Assembly: GCA_902768795.1 (NCBI GenBank)
Contig: CACXMS010000003.1
Coordinates: forward strand, 42,816 to 106,815
DNA from: an uncultured Eubacteriales bacterium
GTDB taxonomy: Bacteria > Bacillota > Clostridia > Christensenellales > CAG-138
Direction of reading: 5' to 3'
DNA: 64,000 bases
Of the stretch, positions 37,479 through 45,450 are shown piece by piece. Both the position numbers and the translations under genes were made by a program. Each line of letters starts with the position of its first letter. The first letter of the stretch is position 1. The notes under the pieces were generated by a model, which saw only the letters and a list, made by a program, of their open reading frames with translations, was not told where the DNA came from and searched no databases.

Positions 37479-37744
37479 GACGAAAATCCTCCTTTTCGCA
37501 GGATCATTTTCCGATTGGGATGCATATAGTTTACTCTTAAACCGTCCAAAATTCCACACGCTTATGAATTTGTAACAAAGGATTTACAAAAATGACGAAT
37601 TTCGGCGGGCGAATTGTGTTGAAATTGTCAATTATTTTGCGATCGATGATTTTTTACTTCCAAATTCAAAAAAGTATGCTATACTATACTGGATTGAATC
37701 CATCCTGAAAATGGGAATATGTGGTTTCTTTATCGGAGGTTCTC

Positions 37745-38926
37745 ATGATTGTAGTGATTCCGGCTTATGAACCGGATGAACAGCTGCTCGGCGTTGTAAA
37801 CGGGTTTCGTTCGCGCGTCGCGCAGTATCCGATCGTCGTTGTTGACGACGGAAGCAAAGCGGAATGCAAGCCGATCTTTGACGCGCTCGAACAAACGGAG
37901 GGCGTTACCGTGCTGCATCATCCGCAAAACCGCGGCAAGGGAGCTGCGCTGAAAACGGCTTTTGCATATATCGGAGAAAACTATCCTGCTTCGGAAGGCA
38001 TTCTGACGGTCGACGCCGACGGTCAGCATCTTTTGCACGACTGTCTGAAGGTGTGCGCGGCCTTTGCGACGCATTCGGATCTGTTGATTACGGGGTCGCG
38101 TCGGTTCAAGGGCAAGGTTCCGCTTCGGAGCCGTCTCGGAAACGGCGTCACGCGCGGCGTTTTTCATCTGACGACCGGCAAGCGCGTCTACGATACGCAG
38201 ACCGGCCTTCGCGCCTTTTCCGTCAGCCGGGTTCCCGAGATGCTTGCGCTGAAGGGCGACCGTTATGAATACGAAATCCATCAGCTGTTGCACTGCTGCA
38301 CGAAGAGCACCGGCGTTTATGAAGTCCCGATCGAAACGGTCTATCTGAACGAAAACACTTCGTCGCACTTCGACACGCTGCGTGACTCCGTAAAGATTTA
38401 TAAGGTCATTCTGAAATTTCTCGGCCCGACGTTTTTGAAGTTCATGTCGACGTCTTTTGCCAGCTTTCTGATTGATTTTCTGAGTTTCTGTCTGATCTTT
38501 TACGGCGCCGTCGCGATTTTTGCCGGTCCCGAAACGGCCGTTTCCATGTTTTCATTCAACCGCAGCGTCGACGAAACCTGGGCGTCGGTTCTGCTCGCCG
38601 CCAACCCGATCGTCTTTGTCGGCGGCGGTTCGGTTCTGCGGATCGTTTCCCTTGTTTTGGCGCGTGTCGTTTCCGGGTTCTGCAATTACCTTCTGAACCG
38701 TCGATTCGTATTTGAAGGCGTCCGGAAAGACCGCAATTTCGTCAAGTATGCGCTTGTTGCCGGGACGGTCCTTCTGCTGAACTGGGGCTTTATTGAACTG
38801 TTCACGCGCATCGGCGTACCGGTCTGGCTTGCAAACATCCTTGCACAGACCATCTGCTATCCGCTTTCATTCCTGATGCAGCGCATCTTTGTGTTTAAGA
38901 AAAGAAAGGAACTTTTGAATGGCTAA
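37745..38926 (+). CDS. Bifunctional GT2 glycosyltransferase / GtrA protein
   Basis: VIPAYEP, VDDGS, NRGKGAALK, DADGQH, DTQTGLR; C-terminal TM GtrA region. Confidence 0.9.
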   Translation: MIVVIPAYEPDEQLLGVVNGFRSRVAQYPIVVVDDGSKAECKPIFDALEQTEGVTVLHHPQNRGKGAALKTAFAYIGENYPASEGILTVDADGQHLLHDCLKVCAAFATHSDLLITGSRRFKGKVPLRSRLGNGVTRGVFHLTTGKRVYDTQTGLRAFSVSRVPEMLALKGDRYEYEIHQLLHCCTKSTGVYEVPIETVYLNENTSSHFDTLRDSVKIYKVILKFLGPTFLKFMSTSFASFLIDFLSFCLIFYGAVAIFAGPETAVSMFSFNRSVDETWASVLLAANPIVFVGGGSVLRIVSLVLARVVSGFCNYLLNRRFVFEGVRKDRNFVKYALVAGTVLLLNWGFIELFTRIGVPVWLANILAQTICYPLSFLMQRIFVFKKRKELLNG

Positions 38927-40301
38927 AAAAGATTCATACCGGGTTCTCCGCGTCATCGCCTGCATTCTTGCAAACGCGACCGGAATTCTGGCCGCCAATT
39001 ATATTACGTTCTACATTCTCGATCACTTCAACCCGGGAATGCACTTCGTCATGTATTCGACTTTCCCGCTGACGCAGTATCTGCATTGGATCATCGCCGC
39101 GCTTGCCGTGCTTTCCGGAATGCTGTATCTGCTGCTCTTCAACGTTGATGCGTTCAAGCGGCATAAATTCAACCTGAAGCGGCTCATTCTGATCCTTGTT
39201 CTCGATATTCTTCTTGCAGGCGCGTTTGCCATGACCGTCAACACCCATGCGTTCGACTGGCTGCACCTGCGCGACATTCAAAAAGAAAACCTTGTCGCCG
39301 TCGCTACGCTGACGCCCACGCCCGAGCCGACGGCTGCGCCCACCGCCGAGCCCACTGCGGCGCCGGAGCTTACGCCCGCGCCCGACGGCTCCACGCCGGT
39401 TCCGACCGAGGAACCGACCGCGACGCCCGAACCCACCGCAACGCCGATTCCGGGTCTTCTCGGCGACCGCTACGCGGACAAGTTTACGGACGGAACGGTT
39501 GTGACCGCAGAACCGAAAACAAAGGAAACGCTGGACGACGGTACGGTGAAAACGCTTCTGTACACGTATGCGAGCGACAGCGTGGTGATCGAGATCAACC
39601 ACTATAAGCTGAAAAAGCTCGAATACCAGATCGCCGATATCTATGTGCGCGACATCAAATCGCTTTGGGCGGACTATTCCTCCGGCTCCGGCGATACCCG
39701 CATGGCCTCCGATTTCGGTCGTGAGCTTGGCGCGCTGGTTTGCGTAAACAGCGATTATTTCATCAACAACGCCACGAATGAAGGACTTGTCATCCGAAAC
39801 GGATTCGTTCTCCGGAACAACCCGTGCGTCAACGCGGATCTCTGCGTCATCTTCCAGAACGGCGAGATGCGCTGCTACGAAGCGAAGAAGGATAAAGTGG
39901 ACAACGACGAAATTCTCGCGCAGTATCCGTTCCATTCCTTCTATTTCGGGCCGTCGCTGCTGGATGCGGAGGGCAACGCAAAGACCGAATTCGCTTCTCC
40001 GCAGAACATCAACGGCGCAAACCCGCGTACGGCGATCGGTTATTATGAACCCGGTCATTACGCATTCCTGTGCGTGCTCGGAACCCGTTCGATGCACTCG
40101 CTTTCCGGCAAGAATCTCGGCAACGGTTCCTCCCCCGGCCTGAAGATGGCGGAGCTTTCGGAGCTTTGCGCGAAGCTCGGCATGAAGTCCGCTTACAACC
40201 TGGACGGCGGCGGTTCCTCGAGCATGTATTGGAACAAGAATCTTTTCGGCCACAATTCCCGCGCGACCAGCGATATTATCGCGGTCGTCGATCAGAAATA
40301 A
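38919..40301 (+). CDS. Phosphodiester glycosidase (NAGPA/DUF2233) membrane protein
   Basis: 3 TM, PT-rich linker, VNSDY, FGP.L, NPRTAIG, AYNLDGGGSS. Confidence 0.87.
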   Translation: MAKKDSYRVLRVIACILANATGILAANYITFYILDHFNPGMHFVMYSTFPLTQYLHWIIAALAVLSGMLYLLLFNVDAFKRHKFNLKRLILILVLDILLAGAFAMTVNTHAFDWLHLRDIQKENLVAVATLTPTPEPTAAPTAEPTAAPELTPAPDGSTPVPTEEPTATPEPTATPIPGLLGDRYADKFTDGTVVTAEPKTKETLDDGTVKTLLYTYASDSVVIEINHYKLKKLEYQIADIYVRDIKSLWADYSSGSGDTRMASDFGRELGALVCVNSDYFINNATNEGLVIRNGFVLRNNPCVNADLCVIFQNGEMRCYEAKKDKVDNDEILAQYPFHSFYFGPSLLDAEGNAKTEFASPQNINGANPRTAIGYYEPGHYAFLCVLGTRSMHSLSGKNLGNGSSPGLKMAELSELCAKLGMKSAYNLDGGGSSSMYWNKNLFGHNSRATSDIIAVVDQK

Positions 40302-40307
40302 GGAGGT

Positions 40308-40547
40308 ATGATTATGCGTAAATTTCTGCGTACCGTTGCGATCGTCATCACTGTGCTGAGTGTGGCGGTTTCCCTTGCATATCTGCTTCTTCTGATGCTT
40401 TCCGCGTTTGTTCAGCTTCCGTTCCGCGTCGAAGAAAACTTCCTCGCCGCGGACTGGGTGTTTATCGCGGTCCCGATCCTTGCGCTGCTTTCGTCGATCC
40501 TCGTGCAGGTCGCTTCCCTGAAAAAGAAGAAGAAAAAGCAGGCATAA
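40308..40547 (+). CDS. Small 2-TM membrane protein
   Basis: AGGAGG RBS, two hydrophobic helices, poly-Lys tail. Confidence 0.7.
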   Translation: MIMRKFLRTVAIVITVLSVAVSLAYLLLLMLSAFVQLPFRVEENFLAADWVFIAVPILALLSSILVQVASLKKKKKKQA

Positions 40548-40647
40548 GTTTTCAAAAACAGATGCGCCCGTCCGCACCTTCCGGTGCAGACGGGCATGTT
40601 TTTATGCCTCCCCCTTGCATTCAAAAGCGGCGCCAATGTGCGGGCAG

Positions 40648-40680
40648 AAAAAAGGCCGTCCGGTTTTTTCCGGACGGCCT
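40648..40680 (-). terminator. Intrinsic terminator of cotH-VTC-DUF4956 operon
   Basis: aggccgtccgg..ccggacggcct with T-run on minus strand. Confidence 0.7.
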
Positions 40681-40699
40681 CATACTTTCGTGAAACGGA

Positions 40700-41383
40700 T
40701 CAGGAGATCAGATCGCCCTGATGTGCGATCAGCGTTGCGTCGTAGACGCCGTCCACGCGCAGGAACTTATCGACAAAGCCGGTTTCGCTCGACTTCACGC
40801 GCAGCTCGACCGCAAGCTCGATGCCCTCACGCTGCACGGTCTTGGACTTCACGCGCGCATAGGGGATCTGCGCGACCATTGCTTTGACCTGCTTCGAAGC
40901 GCGTTCCTCATAGTGCAGGATCAAAAGATACGGCAGGGACGCTTTCTTTTTCGAAGACGCCAGCGCAAGCATCAATACGCCGATCAGCAGGACGCCGACG
41001 ATTGCGGCCAGAATAAACCCTGCGCCGATCGCAATGCCTTCGCCGATCGCCCAGAACATGAACACGGTATCGATCGGATCCTTGATCGCAGTACGGAAAC
41101 GAACGATCGACAGCGCGCCGACCATGCCGAGCGACAGCTTCAGGTTGTTCGACATAAACAGGATGACCATTGCCGATACCATCGTCAGCATGACGAGGCT
41201 CATGTTGAACGTTTTGCTGTACACTACGCCGGAGAACGTCAGCCGATAGATCACATAGATGAACATGCCGAGCAGAAACGCGACGACAATGCTGCCGATC
41301 ATCGGGACGACCTGGTTCGTCTGAAAGTTGAACAGCTCCAGGAAAGCGGAGCGCAGCGTGCTGAAATAACTTGTTGATTCCAT
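40700..41383 (-). CDS. DUF4956 membrane protein
   Basis: LSLGMVGALSIVRFRTAIKDP.D..F.FWAI..G. Confidence 0.9.
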   Translation of the reverse strand: MESTSYFSTLRSAFLELFNFQTNQVVPMIGSIVVAFLLGMFIYVIYRLTFSGVVYSKTFNMSLVMLTMVSAMVILFMSNNLKLSLGMVGALSIVRFRTAIKDPIDTVFMFWAIGEGIAIGAGFILAAIVGVLLIGVLMLALASSKKKASLPYLLILHYEERASKQVKAMVAQIPYARVKSKTVQREGIELAVELRVKSSETGFVDKFLRVDGVYDATLIAHQGDLIS

Positions 41384-41414
41384 AATTCCTCCTGAAATAA
41401 TCATTCTTTGTATG

Positions 41415-42131
41415 TCAACAGTCGTATTGTCTGCAATACAGGTACTTGCTTGCCGCACTCCTCTGCGCGGCGTTGAGCTGCAGCAGTTCCATCACATACG
41501 ACGCCAGATACGCGTTGAACTTGACCTCGAGGATGCACTGCCCCATAAACTCCGTAGCGGGATAGGTGATCGTGTTCGGATTGAACAGATCGACCGAATG
41601 CATGCCGGTGCGGATGTTGCGATCGAGCGTCACGCGGACGTCCTCGACCGGGAATACGAACGGCTCCCGGTCATAATCGACGATAACCTTCGGCCGCAGA
41701 TGTTTCGTGACCATCTCTCCGTATGCTTCCTTTGCAAACGGCTCTTTCCGGTGCAGCAAAAAGCCGTATACGCCGGCGCAAAGCGCGCTGCATTCGCGTT
41801 TGGAAAGCGATAAGCTGTCCTTCTTGATGAACTGGCCGTTTTTGTGCTTTCGCTCCAGTTTGATGACTTTATCGGACAGATCGTAAATGCGGATGCGCCA
41901 TTTGTCGCGGTACTCGATCCCGTTCACTTTTTCGGTTACGGCCGAATCGAACGGATCGTCAAAGTAAAGACTGCGGATAAAATACCCGCCCTCTTTCGCG
42001 TACGGATCGGGACGCAGCGCATTTCGCAGACGGATCGCCAGCAGTTCCGCCTCGGCTTCCGAGATGATGTATTTCAGCTCGTGCCGGTAGCCCTCCGAAT
42101 TGGGCTTCGGGGTTAAAATACTGTTTTTCAA
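41415..42131 (-). CDS. VTC-domain polyphosphate polymerase-like protein
   Basis: RHELKY, IRSLYFD, KWRIRIY, KLERK, DYDRE, RVTLD, ILEVKF, SKY; TTG start overlapping cotH stop. Confidence 0.88.
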   Translation of the reverse strand: MKNSILTPKPNSEGYRHELKYIISEAEAELLAIRLRNALRPDPYAKEGGYFIRSLYFDDPFDSAVTEKVNGIEYRDKWRIRIYDLSDKVIKLERKHKNGQFIKKDSLSLSKRECSALCAGVYGFLLHRKEPFAKEAYGEMVTKHLRPKVIVDYDREPFVFPVEDVRVTLDRNIRTGMHSVDLFNPNTITYPATEFMGQCILEVKFNAYLASYVMELLQLNAAQRSAASKYLYCRQYDC

Positions 42132-45100
42132 AGCTTGCTTGTCCTCCCGAACAGTTCGATCATCTTCGCATCCGTCAGCTTGTAATGCGTTTTGCTGTTG
42201 ATGTAATTCTGACAGTACTTCAGGAAATAATCCTGATAATTGTTCGCGTAGTTGCGAATGTTGTTCACGTGGGAATTCCATCCCTTCACCGAAAGATGAT
42301 TGTACGGCTCCCAGCGCTTGAGGTCGTACGTTTCCATCTCAAAGCGGATATTGCTCTGCAGCTCGTCCACCTTCGCGTTGATCTTCTCCGGCGTATAAAC
42401 ATTATTGAAGAAGTCCGCGCAATAATAAAGGAAAATCTCCACAAAATCGTTGTTCGAAAGCAGCGAACGGGCAAGCGTCGTATCGAAGCTGGCGCCCGCG
42501 CCGTGTCCCGCCGGGTTGAAATACTTCGTGAAGAAATCCCTGCGGTAGCCGCTCGTCTTGTTGATATCGGTGCTCGGATCCTCGCGGTTGAATGCCCAGC
42601 AGAAGTCGTACGGAAGCCAGCGCCACTTGTTGTCCAGCTCCGTCGAACGCCACCACTTGATATTGCCGGTGTCCGTATTGCCGACGATGATTTCAAACGC
42701 GCAGTATTGCGCGAAGTTACGCACATCGACGCGGTCGCACACATACTGATAATCGGAATCGTTCCTGAGGTCGCAGTTCTTGCTGTTGCAAAAAGCGATC
42801 AGCTCCTTATAATCGTTCAGCGCGTCGCCGTTGACGTCCGCAACAACGTTGCCGCTTGCCGCGCCGTTGCCGACCAGAATGTCGATCGAATCGGTGTCCT
42901 CGATACCGAAATGCTGCGCGATATAGAACTTGCTGATCTTCTCGCGCAGATTGTACACGCCCCAGTACTCGCCGTTCAGATACACAATGCACTGGATATA
43001 CGCCTGATTCGCCATATCCACGCCCGCGTCGTTCAGAAGCCCGAGAACGAGCACGTCGCGGATACGCGACAGCGCGCAATCCTGTCCCGACGCGCGGAGA
43101 ACCAGCGATTTATACCGCGTGAACGGGCGGTTTTCAAAGAACGGATACTCGAGCCACGAGGAGCCGACGCCCTTTCTGCCGATCAGCGCGATGCCCTTCT
43201 GGGCTTTTTTGCGCGAGAACGCGCCGAAAATCCGGATGTTGAGATCGCTCTCGTAAAGAACGTTCTGCGCGTTCACGTCACAGTAGGTAAACGTCGCCGG
43301 GCGCTCCCACATCTTGCCGCGCATATTGAAGTTCGCCCAGGTTCCCATCGTTTCCTTGTCCTGGATGATGATCTCGTTCGGATCCTTCACGGCGCCCTTG
43401 CCCGTATAATCGTCGCCCTTGACGTAAATACCCGTCTTGGTGTCCCAAAGGTTATTGGGATCGGTCACAAGAAAGCAAACGGGCAGCGTCGTATTGTGCG
43501 CGTTCACGGTCTCCGAATTGCCTACGATAATATAGGTATAGGATTTCGTTACGCTCGGGTACTGCGATCCGTTGTTCGAAAACGTGCGGATCCTTAGCAC
43601 GGTATTCTGCGCGATCGGGATCGGGCCGGTGACGCGCGTACCGCTTTCGGTCGGCGTCGTCGCATCGGTCGTATACGTTGCGTACGCGCCTTCCGGCACC
43701 CGGACATTCACGGTCTGCACCGCGGAATACACGCCGCTCGGCGTATCCGCCTCGGCTGCCTCACAGTATGCCGTAAACCCTGCGTTCGGATTCTGCGCCG
43801 CCTCGGTCGGCGTATCAAACAACACCCATTCGCCGTTTGCGTCACGCCCGTACGAAATGCACGCGCGACATTCCGGAACCGTAACACGATCGATCATCGT
43901 TCCGCCCGGTTCGTACAGGTAGATCGTCTCGCCCGAGGAGGAGATATCAAAGTTCAACTGATAGCGAAGCTGCTGTTCGGTCGCGGCGCTTTCCCCGTCC
44001 CGTGGGAGACTGCCGTCCAGCTGCAGAGCGAGATATCCTTTTGCGGCGATACTCGTTCCGTCAGGAAAAACCCATTTGAGCGGGCGGCTCAGGTTGTTGG
44101 AGACCGTATAGCCGGTCAGGTCGATCGGATAGTCCGCCTTGTTGTATATCTCGATCCATGCGCCGTAGTCCGCGTCGAACGGGCGATCGCTCTTGGTCGA
44201 TTTGGAATACTGATACACGACGTGGTAGCCGTTGACGAGCACTTCGTTGAACATGATATCATGCACGCCCATGCTGCCGTTTTCGGCTTTGTCGAACAGC
44301 GCATAGCCCGCTTCGGTGTTCGGATACCCCGGCGTGATGCGGTCGGTCGGCGTAAACGGGGACGACGGATCGAACTGTCCGCCCGGGAACGACCTTGCCA
44401 TGGAAAAGTTCTTCTCCTGCGGACCGAACTCGATCATATCAATGATCATGTCCTCGGGCGAAGTCAGAAGCAGCGTTTCCCCGCGGGAAGCGAGGCCGAA
44501 ATCGATGCAGACGTATCCGTCTACGGGAACCGTCGTATTGTACACGACCAGGAATCCGTAAGCGTCGATCGTCACATGGCCGAACGTGAATTTCTTCGGC
44601 TTTGTGACGTCGTCCGACAGTCCGTATCCGGCAAGGTCGACCGGAGAGCCGGAGTTGTTGTACAGCTCGATCCAGTCGCAGTATGTCCCGTCCGGGCAGA
44701 GATGCGCGCTGCTGTTGCTCGCCTGGAATTCGCTGATGCGGACCGCGCTCTGGGAAACCGTTTCCACGGTTCCGATCTCGGTCGAAAGCATCTTGGACTT
44801 CTCGTATGCCTCGATGCCGGCGTCGGTGTTCGGATATCCGGGAGACGGCGCCTTGTTCGACCAGGTTCCCGTCGCTTCGTCGTAGCAGTACGCAAGGCCG
44901 GCGTACGTGTCTGCAAGGGAAACCGTCGTGATCGGGACGCCGCCGCCGTCGATAAAGCGCAGCACGTCGCCCTTGGACAGTGCAAACGTCGCGACATTTT
45001 TGAGGCCGGTTTCCTGCCCCGCGCACCAGATCACATAGTACTCGCCGGGCTGCAGAATCGTTCCCTCGGGCACGACCCATGCATCCGTCTCGCTGTCAGA

Positions 45101-45370
45101 CAGACCGTAGCCGGAAATATTGACCGATGCGGAGCTTGTGTTATGCAGCTCCACATAGTCGCTGTAGGTTCCCATCGGATCGCGCGCGACCTGTTTGTTG
45201 CTCACAAGAATTTCGCTGATCACGACTGCCGAGCTCTGCTTGTTCGTCGTTGTCTTCCGCGCATTCTTCCCCGCGCAGCTCATTATCAATGAAAAAGCCA
45301 GCAGCACCACAAGCACCGCCGCCAAAGCGACGGCAAGCGCGGCCAGCTTTCTTTTTTGTTTTTTATTCAT
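42128..45370 (-). CDS. Membrane-anchored lamin-tail/CotH kinase protein
   Basis: N-terminal TM; three LTD starts (ISEILVSN, ISEFQASN, FNEVLVN); YLNGEYWGVYNLRE, GNTD, WRWLPYD. Confidence 0.88.
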   Translation of the reverse strand: MNKKQKRKLAALAVALAAVLVVLLAFSLIMSCAGKNARKTTTNKQSSAVVISEILVSNKQVARDPMGTYSDYVELHNTSSASVNISGYGLSDSETDAWVVPEGTILQPGEYYVIWCAGQETGLKNVATFALSKGDVLRFIDGGGVPITTVSLADTYAGLAYCYDEATGTWSNKAPSPGYPNTDAGIEAYEKSKMLSTEIGTVETVSQSAVRISEFQASNSSAHLCPDGTYCDWIELYNNSGSPVDLAGYGLSDDVTKPKKFTFGHVTIDAYGFLVVYNTTVPVDGYVCIDFGLASRGETLLLTSPEDMIIDMIEFGPQEKNFSMARSFPGGQFDPSSPFTPTDRITPGYPNTEAGYALFDKAENGSMGVHDIMFNEVLVNGYHVVYQYSKSTKSDRPFDADYGAWIEIYNKADYPIDLTGYTVSNNLSRPLKWVFPDGTSIAAKGYLALQLDGSLPRDGESAATEQQLRYQLNFDISSSGETIYLYEPGGTMIDRVTVPECRACISYGRDANGEWVLFDTPTEAAQNPNAGFTAYCEAAEADTPSGVYSAVQTVNVRVPEGAYATYTTDATTPTESGTRVTGPIPIAQNTVLRIRTFSNNGSQYPSVTKSYTYIIVGNSETVNAHNTTLPVCFLVTDPNNLWDTKTGIYVKGDDYTGKGAVKDPNEIIIQDKETMGTWANFNMRGKMWERPATFTYCDVNAQNVLYESDLNIRIFGAFSRKKAQKGIALIGRKGVGSSWLEYPFFENRPFTRYKSLVLRASGQDCALSRIRDVLVLGLLNDAGVDMANQAYIQCIVYLNGEYWGVYNLREKISKFYIAQHFGIEDTDSIDILVGNGAASGNVVADVNGDALNDYKELIAFCNSKNCDLRNDSDYQYVCDRVDVRNFAQYCAFEIIVGNTDTGNIKWWRSTELDNKWRWLPYDFCWAFNREDPSTDINKTSGYRRDFFTKYFNPAGHGAGASFDTTLARSLLSNNDFVEIFLYYCADFFNNVYTPEKINAKVDELQSNIRFEMETYDLKRWEPYNHLSVKGWNSHVNNIRNYANNYQDYFLKYCQNYINSKTHYKLTDAKMIELFGRTSKL

Positions 45371-45450
45371 TGGGAACTCCTCAACTTATAAAATCGTATC
45401 AGCTTATCATACCATACATTTTTCGATATGAACAGTATCGCATAAAAATT

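Follow-up and report, generated by a model that had tools for sequence, protein, structure and literature searches.

The VTC complex of eukaryotes is a polyphosphate synthase-translocase that in yeast comprises Vtc4, Vtc3 or Vtc2, and Vtc1 (3g3q, 7ytj, and 8i6v). A bacterial locus carrying a related enzyme is described here from a 64,000-nucleotide stretch (the window) of contig CACXMS010000003.1 of an uncultured Eubacteriales bacterium. The locus features three co-oriented open reading frames (ORFs) on the minus strand, which are, in transcription order, a cotH-like gene, a VTC-domain gene, and a DUF4956 gene. Across genomes, VTC and DUF4956 form a near-obligatory adjacent pair. Beside them, the module has a third gene with a predicted exported product, CotH in most loci and a Cthe_2159 beta-helix lipoprotein in some. 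As judged from the sequences, the module has the same enzyme as the yeast complex, with an unrelated membrane partner and a kinase that is predicted to be exported. The two systems share a homologous catalytic domain with nine ligand residues and the pairing of a VTC enzyme with an obligatory membrane partner. They differ in domain content, as the bacterial enzyme lacks both SPX and a fused DUF202 membrane domain. They differ as well in the membrane partner, which here is a separate chain, MgtC-like and unrelated to that of yeast, and carries an ACT-like domain. The target of the yeast complex is the vacuole, whereas here it would be the cell exterior.

Bacterial members of these families have been described as accessory genes of pel loci. 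According to Whitfield et al. (10.1101/768473), the accessory genes contiguous with pelDEADAFG in streptococci and clostridia comprise cotH, a gene for a 'poly-phosphate polymerase', DUF4956, and DUF4832. The S. intermedius genes SIR_1594, SIR_1593, and SIR_1592 encode a CotH that is exported, a VTC protein located in the cytoplasm, and a membrane protein described as '4 TM + ACT, MgtC-like' (TM, transmembrane) (PMC12345266; 10.1101/2024.04.20.589940). The window trio resembles this set in having the same three families in a co-oriented cluster, and the DUF4956 protein of the window, a membrane protein with a C-terminal ACT-like domain, agrees with the published description of its S. intermedius homologue. 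Unlike the pel accessory sets, the trio is not contiguous with pel genes, and none were found in the 64-kb window. Its CotH protein has 1080 residues and three lamin-tail domains, whereas that of S. intermedius has ~570 residues with FN3. The gene set itself is already published, and the window is a clean pel-free example of it. What is novel here are the distribution figures, the map of catalytic residues, the export rule for the third partner, and the correction that the module is mostly not a pel module. The original prediction had held that no mechanism is established for the trio, and none was found in the literature searched; papers on DUF4956, CotH, and bacterial VTC (supplements excluded) yielded no proposal of polymer export or of its use by CotH.

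The partner proteins have relatives of their own. Spore-coat CotH acts with ATP in the mother cell. The CotH of B. subtilis and B. cereus (5jd9) has the same kinase domain as the window protein, which keeps both catalytic aspartates; spore CotH proteins have ~360 residues and no export signal, whereas the window protein is predicted to be anchored, is three times longer, and is linked to VTC and DUF4956. Fam20 kinases phosphorylate proteins outside the cytosol, where they work in the Golgi with imported ATP, and Fam20B phosphorylates a sugar. We know of no relation between Fam20 kinases and polyphosphate. CotH is described as distantly related to these secretory-pathway kinases, and the characterized CotH uses ATP (PMC7821199). 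The DUF4956 protein resembles the MgtC family (Salmonella, M. tuberculosis; 2lqj and 7qa5) in having a helical membrane domain followed by an ACT-like domain, and differs from it in featuring its own invariant R-F-R loop and in being paired with VTC.

The three genes and their products

The trio lies on the minus strand, as had been predicted, and is confirmed by ORF and Pfam evidence. The genes and the candidate signals that flank them are as follows.

42128..45370, minus strand: cotH-like gene encoding 1080 residues, with a putative N-terminal anchor, three lamin-tail (LTD) domains, a CHB_HEX_C/Fn3_assoc domain, and a CotH kinase domain (ORF and Pfam)
41415..42131, minus strand: VTC-domain gene (Vtc4-like polyphosphate polymerase domain) encoding 238 residues from a TTG start (Pfam PF09359, 9e-37)
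40700..41383, minus strand: DUF4956 gene encoding 227 residues from an ATG start, with helical membrane and ACT-like domains (Pfam PF16316, AlphaFold)
45406..45414, minus strand: candidate extended -10 element TGGTATGAT, 36 nucleotides upstream of the cotH ATG (read in the sequence)
40652..40681, minus strand: intrinsic-terminator-like hairpin (12 pairs, 9 of them G-C) with a T-run, 19 nucleotides after the DUF4956 stop

The predicted overlap between the cotH stop and the VTC start holds with TTG 42131 as the VTC start codon. This codon overlaps the cotH TGA at 42130..42128 and has GGGAGGA ~10 nucleotides upstream. The longest VTC frame would run 154 nucleotides into cotH; the TTG start gives a protein of 238 residues, and most of the closest homologues among the matches listed have 236-238 residues. 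The DUF4956 gene most likely starts at ATG 41383, to judge from the AGGAGGA that precedes it, and this codon is located 31 nucleotides after the VTC stop. The extended -10 element of the original prediction, TGGTATGAT, is present at 45414..45406, but its -35 region is weak (TGTTCA) and the site is missing from the output of a consensus promoter scan. Parts of all three genes are represented by short contigs in four bovine gut metatranscriptome libraries (two studies), and one of these contigs (42006-42237) spans the cotH/VTC junction. DNA carry-over is possible and the contigs show no transcript ends, so they were set aside as proof of an operon transcript.

The VTC protein matches PF09359 with 127.3 bits against a cut-off of 23 (E 9e-37), and Pfam finds neither an SPX domain nor a membrane domain in its 238 residues. 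A profile built from 46 relatives matches yeast Vtc4 (3g3q) at 6.3e-19, well ahead of the inactive Vtc2/3. Yeast Vtc2/3/4 were the only solved matches of this profile in the PDB, with no bacterial VTC-domain structure, and a PDB search with the single window sequence returned nothing useful. In Vtc4, the triphosphate is bound by K200, R264, R266, K281, Y359, R361, S457, and K458, Mn2+ is bound by E426, and K458 is the sole listed residue without a counterpart in Vtc2/3 (10.1101/2023.01.27.525886). HMMER alignment places K200, R264, R266, K281, and Y359 opposite K20, R79, R81, K95, and Y153 of the window protein, and R361, E426, S457, and K458 opposite R155, E202, S228, and K229. Eight of these nine residues are invariant in the 46 sequences, including K229, which corresponds to the Vtc4-specific K458, and S228 is shared by at least 90% of them. 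The protein thus has the full set of Vtc4 catalytic residues and is in this respect consistent with the polyphosphate polymerase of the original prediction. It is homologous to the catalytic tunnel domain of Vtc4, from which a closed beta-barrel fold is expected.

The DUF4956 protein matches PF16316 with 35.1 bits against a cut-off of 30.6 (E 1.4e-8), as do all 44 of the aligned relatives. The full-length AlphaFold model (predicted local distance difference test, pLDDT, 83.4) features an N-terminal amphipathic helix, a helical membrane domain at residues 22-145 with helices at 25-49, 57-77, 81-93, 103-120, and 124-144, and a C-terminal domain at residues 150-220. The latter has a beta-alpha-beta-beta-alpha-beta order and is ACT-like in the model. 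It compares with the C-terminal domain of MgtC at a Foldseek E-value of 3.3e-3 (Z 10.2, root-mean-square deviation 2.5 over 81 residues), although it resembles other ACT domains as well as that of MgtC. The window protein has no match to the MgtC family PF02308 at E <= 1, and a profile search with the family found no solved relative in the PDB. An MgtC label from the ESM Atlas was discarded, as the nearest named cluster scored 0.76, which is below a meaningful level. In the alignment, Y46, G89, R95, F96, R97, and G116 are the only invariant residues. R95, F96, and R97 belong to a conserved basic loop, R95-F96-R97-x3-K101, that is located two membrane helices ahead of the C-terminal domain. Because two helices separate the loop from this presumably cytoplasmic domain, the loop should, on the model, face the cytoplasm as well.

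The cotH-like gene encodes a multidomain protein with the following parts.

45278..45346, minus strand: N-terminal signal-anchor or lipoprotein-like signal, residues 9-31, after MNKKQKRK and ending ..LIMSC (hydropathy)
43877..45241, minus strand: three LTD domains, residues 44-138, 206-315, and 386-498 (Pfam PF00932)
43553..43741, minus strand: CHB_HEX_C_1/Fn3_assoc beta-sandwich domain, residues 544-606 (Pfam PF13290)
42233..43237, minus strand: CotH kinase domain, residues 712-1046, with catalytic-type D900 (NTD) and D922 (PYD) (Pfam PF08757)

Pfam finds the LTD domains at 7.2e-47 in three stretches (9.8e-17, 8.6e-13, and 3e-16 when scanned piecewise), the PF13290 domain at 1.1e-9 in the whole protein and 4.8e-11 in the piecewise scan, and the CotH domain at 6.1e-40 (138.1 bits against a cut-off of 23.8). 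Residues 9-31 form a hydrophobic stretch of 23 residues with a Kyte-Doolittle maximum of 3.17 over 15 residues. Since this segment follows MNKKQKRK, the rest of the protein is predicted by the positive-inside rule to lie outside the membrane, whether the segment is an anchor or a lipoprotein-like signal. The hydrophobic segment and the Pfam LTD matches agree with the proposal of a membrane-anchored kinase with three lamin-tail domains that would face outside. A profile of VTC-linked CotH proteins matches B. cereus CotH (5jd9) at 1.4e-58; a PDB search with the single window sequence gave nothing useful. In B. subtilis CotH, mutation of D228 or D251 inactivates the kinase (PMC7821199). D900 and D922 correspond by motif and spacing to these residues and to D224 and D247 of B. 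cereus, and the CotH domain of the window protein looks catalytically competent on this basis.

Linkage of the pair and the predicted export of the third partner

Linkage was determined in a sample of 301 genomes drawn evenly from the phylum, plus 14 control genomes. DUF4956 was counted as adjacent within 1.5 kb and CotH within 3 kb of VTC on the same strand, and one sub-threshold CotH match was omitted from the co-occurrence counts. VTC has a match in 45 of the 301 genomes, DUF4956 in 46 (44 over the cut-off), and CotH in 43 (42 over the cut-off). All 45 VTC genomes also contain DUF4956, and the lone genome with DUF4956 only has a match below the family cut-off. DUF4956 adjoins VTC at 50 of the 54 VTC places; at the remaining four, VTC lies at a contig start (two), DUF4956 is on another contig (one), or cotH lies in between (one). 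CotH adjoins VTC at 32 of the 54 places and is found in 36 of the 45 VTC genomes. Six genomes have CotH only, and four of these have frames of ~360 residues. Among the controls, VTC and DUF4956 occur in the same three genomes (B. thetaiotaomicron, C. glutamicum, and M. acetivorans), and CotH occurs in those three and in B. subtilis; PelG has no match in the three genomes with VTC and DUF4956. These counts substantiate the recurrence of the trio that had been proposed.

The 80 closest related loci of other species were scanned with a narrower alignment that reaches Clostridia only. The order long CotH, VTC, DUF4956 is found in 76 of the 80, and three others are cut by contig ends, in agreement with a tight conserved gene unit. 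Their source genomes are those of uncultured Clostridia, Christensenellales, and Oscillospiraceae, with many from the ruminant gut. Apparent CotH-VTC, Cthe_2159-VTC, and HisKA-VTC fusions (P0245, P0246, P0248, and P0250) were rejected, as they contain partial VTC domains and are probably read-through gene calls.

Export of the third partner was judged by a 15-residue Kyte-Doolittle window of at least 2.0 within the first 90 residues. The set of linked CotH proteins consists of 32 sequences of at least 450 residues, after two shorter fragments were dropped. A hydrophobic N-terminal segment is present in 31 of these 32, and the 32nd scores 1.98. None of six unlinked spore-type CotH proteins (~360 residues) has such a segment, with scores of 0.16-0.97. 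All five Cthe_2159 beta-helix partners begin with lipoprotein-like signals.

CotH is replaced beside VTC-DUF4956 by the Cthe_2159 lipoprotein in loci L011, L013, L014, and L017 (and L012), generally together with an OmpR/HisKA pair. The Cthe_2159 family ('carbohydrate-binding') is reported to bind polyanionic polysaccharides, and for this reason the lipoprotein might bind polyphosphate.

Neighbouring genes and other copies

Neighbours were surveyed at 40 of the 54 VTC places that were retrieved, with their ORFs clustered and named by Pfam; 39 loci in which the ORF picker kept VTC were used, and VTC was lost in three. An OmpR-type regulator and a HisKA kinase directly flank the module in 14 of the 39 loci (15 with L034, where the wrong strand was picked over cotH). 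None of the neighbouring two-component systems reached an NCBIfam equivalog cut-off, for PhoR or any other. Cthe_2159 stands in the place of CotH in 4/39 loci, and a processive-type GT2 is a few genes away in 4/39. Diguanylate cyclases/phosphodiesterases, other glycosyltransferases, and secreted nucleases also recur near the module. Among 140 flanking ORFs of the single-membraned sample, one HlyD-type gene, beside ABC transporter genes (L041), was the sole neighbour of HlyD or TolC type.

According to the S. intermedius papers, the three genes occur together only at pel loci (PMC12345266; 10.1101/2024.04.20.589940). This is contradicted by the mapped loci, since pelF and pelG lie within ~10 kb of the module in only 6 of the 39, and by the present genome, as PelG has no match in the whole assembly (1.9 Mb, 90.4% complete). 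Additionally, 103 further window ORFs of at least 140 residues contain no PelG, PelF-type (DUF3492 and GT1), or DUF2194 match. Overall, the neighbouring genes relate to surface polymers and to how these are regulated, and not solely to pel.

In the window, the CCA-adding enzyme, gyrA, gyrB, and recF are located upstream of the trio (higher coordinates). Downstream, on the opposite strand, are a small membrane ORF, a NAGPA phosphodiester glycosidase, and a GT2-GtrA glycosyltransferase, followed further on by an LCP-Cna_B protein and a polysaccharide deacetylase. At 37721-40301 (plus strand), the GT2-GtrA fusion (polyprenyl-phosphate sugar synthase type) has a stop that overlaps the start of the NAGPA gene. 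The NAGPA protein is membrane-anchored with a Pro/Thr linker, and the pair resembles a two-gene surface-glycan unit that is convergent on the trio. The small ORF (40308-40547, plus strand) follows the NAGPA gene and encodes 79 residues with two hydrophobic helices, a KKKKKKQA tail, and no Pfam match; it has its own hairpin (40596..40565, opposite strand). NAGPA, GT2-GtrA, and LCP genes are not conserved beside the module in other genomes and are therefore treated as local neighbours. A link between CotH and NAGPA was dropped on the same ground.

The genome has further copies. Contig 17 (L008 14337-15143 and 15047-15844, plus strand) carries a second VTC-DUF4956 pair of another subfamily (KRYELKY...; AFSLIRFRSAPG loop) without an adjacent CotH, flanked by a polytopic membrane ORF of 291 residues upstream (no Pfam match) and by Amidase_3 downstream. 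Contig 6 (L009 6646-10047) carries a CotH of 1133 residues with four lamin-tail domains and no VTC, followed by a TIR-domain protein, an LRR protein of 1142 residues, and an RyR-domain protein. Contig 2 (L010 7397-8953) carries a third CotH, of 518 residues and also without VTC; a second NAGPA gene and an OmpR/HisKA pair lie ~2.3 kb away.

PPK1 and PPK2 have no match in the 90.4%-complete assembly, so the two VTC proteins may, to judge from gene content, be the organism's sole polyphosphate synthases. One Ppx-GppA homologue is present (contig 16, 19362-20117). By hand count, PPK1 occurs in 52 of the 301 genomes, of which 16 are among the 45 with VTC and 36 among the 256 without. On these counts, VTC is not a simple stand-in for PPK1.

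Possible roles of the module

The three proteins probably work together on the cell surface, as their linkage and predicted signals suggest. The best reading, which we hold tentatively, is that VTC docks on DUF4956, that polyphosphate made at the membrane, or its phosphoryl groups, arrives on the outer side, and that the anchored CotH acts there. It is favoured because the pairing of VTC with a membrane protein mirrors the yeast complex and because the third gene encodes a predicted exported protein, which keeps the idea of polymer export plausible. VTC would dock on a DUF4956 oligomer at the inner face of the membrane and polymerize polyphosphate from ATP, and the polymer, or its phosphoryl groups, would be transferred to the outer face, where CotH, held by its anchor, would work with it on surface polymers (glycans or proteins), for which the polymer could be a phosphoryl donor, a substrate, or a matrix component bound by the lamin-tail domains. 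The ACT-like domain, and in many genomes the neighbouring two-component system, may set the rate. We infer docking, polymerization, translocation, and use by CotH from homologies, residues, linkage, and export signals that are read directly. The translational coupling of cotH and VTC and the single terminator also favour this reading, and we lean, with some hesitation, toward the locus being one operon for an envelope-directed phosphate module that works by this mechanism.

A number of observations weigh against it. No resemblance in sequence or fold was seen between the DUF4956 protein and the channel subunits of yeast (Vtc1/DUF202). When its membrane domain is compared alone (pLDDT 80.8), the best fold match reaches Z 8.0, which is chance level for helical bundles; these matches are archaeal virus coat proteins and assorted transporters, which speak neither for nor against a channel, and no Vtc1 chain is among the top 50, where scores for helical bundles are at chance level. 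Weak matches to MgtC PF02308 are found in 32 of 44 DUF4956 family members (best 1.1e-5), and MgtC is described as a regulator of ATP synthase and PhoR that works through binding to other membrane proteins rather than as a channel (10.1101/2024.04.20.589940). CotH is absent within 3 kb at 22 of the 54 VTC places and has no match in 9 of the 45 VTC genomes, and in the present genome itself one VTC-DUF4956 pair lacks CotH and two CotH genes lack VTC. Nine long proteins included no fusion of VTC with DUF4956, in a search that did not cover lengths of 418-504 residues. In S. intermedius, deletion of DUF4956 or CotH abolishes more than half of the aggregation in artificial sputum (PMC12345266; 10.1101/2024.04.20.589940). 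The VTC knock-out aggregates like the wild type, and deletion of DUF4956 raises Pel whereas deletion of CotH lowers it (PMC12345266). Because these phenotypes diverge, a linear chain from VTC through DUF4956 to CotH fits poorly.

A cytoplasmic polyphosphate store is the alternative that survives best, though we regard it as rather unlikely. DUF4956 would here be an MgtC-like anchor or sensor whose ACT-like domain binds a metabolite, and CotH would be co-regulated because it and VTC both serve envelope or phosphate stress, but would take nothing from VTC. DUF4956 could contact the neighbouring histidine kinase, as MgtC does with PhoR. The MgtC-like sequence and ACT-like fold of DUF4956, the OmpR-type regulator and HisKA kinase beside 14 of 39 modules, the VTC places without CotH, and the possibility that VTC is the only polyphosphate synthase in this genome are all consistent with a store. 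The S. intermedius preprint offers no mechanism and considers that the polymer may stay cytoplasmic (10.1101/2024.04.20.589940), and there the VTC knock-out is unlike the CotH knock-out. However, a store leaves the exported third partner (31/32 CotH and 5/5 Cthe_2159) and the coupling of cotH to VTC unexplained, VTC is no simple replacement of PPK1 (16/45 versus 36/256), and the two-component systems reached no equivalog cut-off, that of PhoR included.

The original prediction was more specific than the surface reading preferred here, in that DUF4956 would be a pore and the exported polyphosphate would be the phosphoryl donor of the external CotH. All the evidence for the preferred reading also favours this one, as do the recurrent coupling of cotH and VTC and the argument that a kinase located outside the cell would have no source of ATP. 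On the other hand, the characterized CotH uses ATP (PMC7821199), the S. intermedius VTC knock-out does not mimic the CotH knock-out (PMC12345266), and the partner in some loci is the Cthe_2159 binding protein, which is not a kinase. Since a binding protein replaces the kinase at those loci, a polymer that is the product fits better than a polymer that is the donor, and we consider the donor model improbable. The same low expectation applies to its broadest form, in which bacteria and archaea would own a VTC machine whose Vtc4-like enzyme, seated on a DUF4956 oligomer, threads out polyphosphate and powers surface CotH kinases.

The preferred reading further depends on VTC being a polymerase. 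The signature of hydrolytic tunnel enzymes is ExExK, and the first strand of the VTC protein, R-H-E-L-K, keeps one of its two glutamates (E18, near-invariant) where Vtc4 has Thr. As this hydrolase-type feature is retained, sequence does not decide between polymerase and hydrolase; the solved structures among the PDB profile matches are those of yeast Vtc2/3/4, none bacterial, and a literature search by title and abstract found no report of activity for a bacterial VTC-domain protein. That VTC is a triphosphate-tunnel hydrolase or a maker of a small signal, which the ACT-like domain of DUF4956 would transduce at the membrane, is nevertheless very improbable given the Pfam match to VTC, the nearest solved relative being Vtc4 (6.3e-19), ahead of Vtc2/3, and the invariant equivalent of K458.

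Should the VTC-DUF4956 pair export polyphosphate, bacteria would have a first counterpart of the VTC synthase-translocase of eukaryotes, built around an unrelated membrane partner, and polyphosphate synthesis would have a second route besides PPK1 and PPK2. If the exported polymer also powers CotH, phosphorylation beyond the bacterial membrane, where ATP is lacking, would have its first known power source, and this would offer a testable answer to how phosphorylation occurs there. Such export would also assign a function to DUF4956, whose sequences form thousands of clusters, and to the many CotH kinases exported by bacteria that do not sporulate. Gut and rumen Clostridia commonly carry the module, which is often located beside exopolysaccharide genes and affects aggregation in S. 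intermedius, and for these reasons it bears on biofilm and surface biology.

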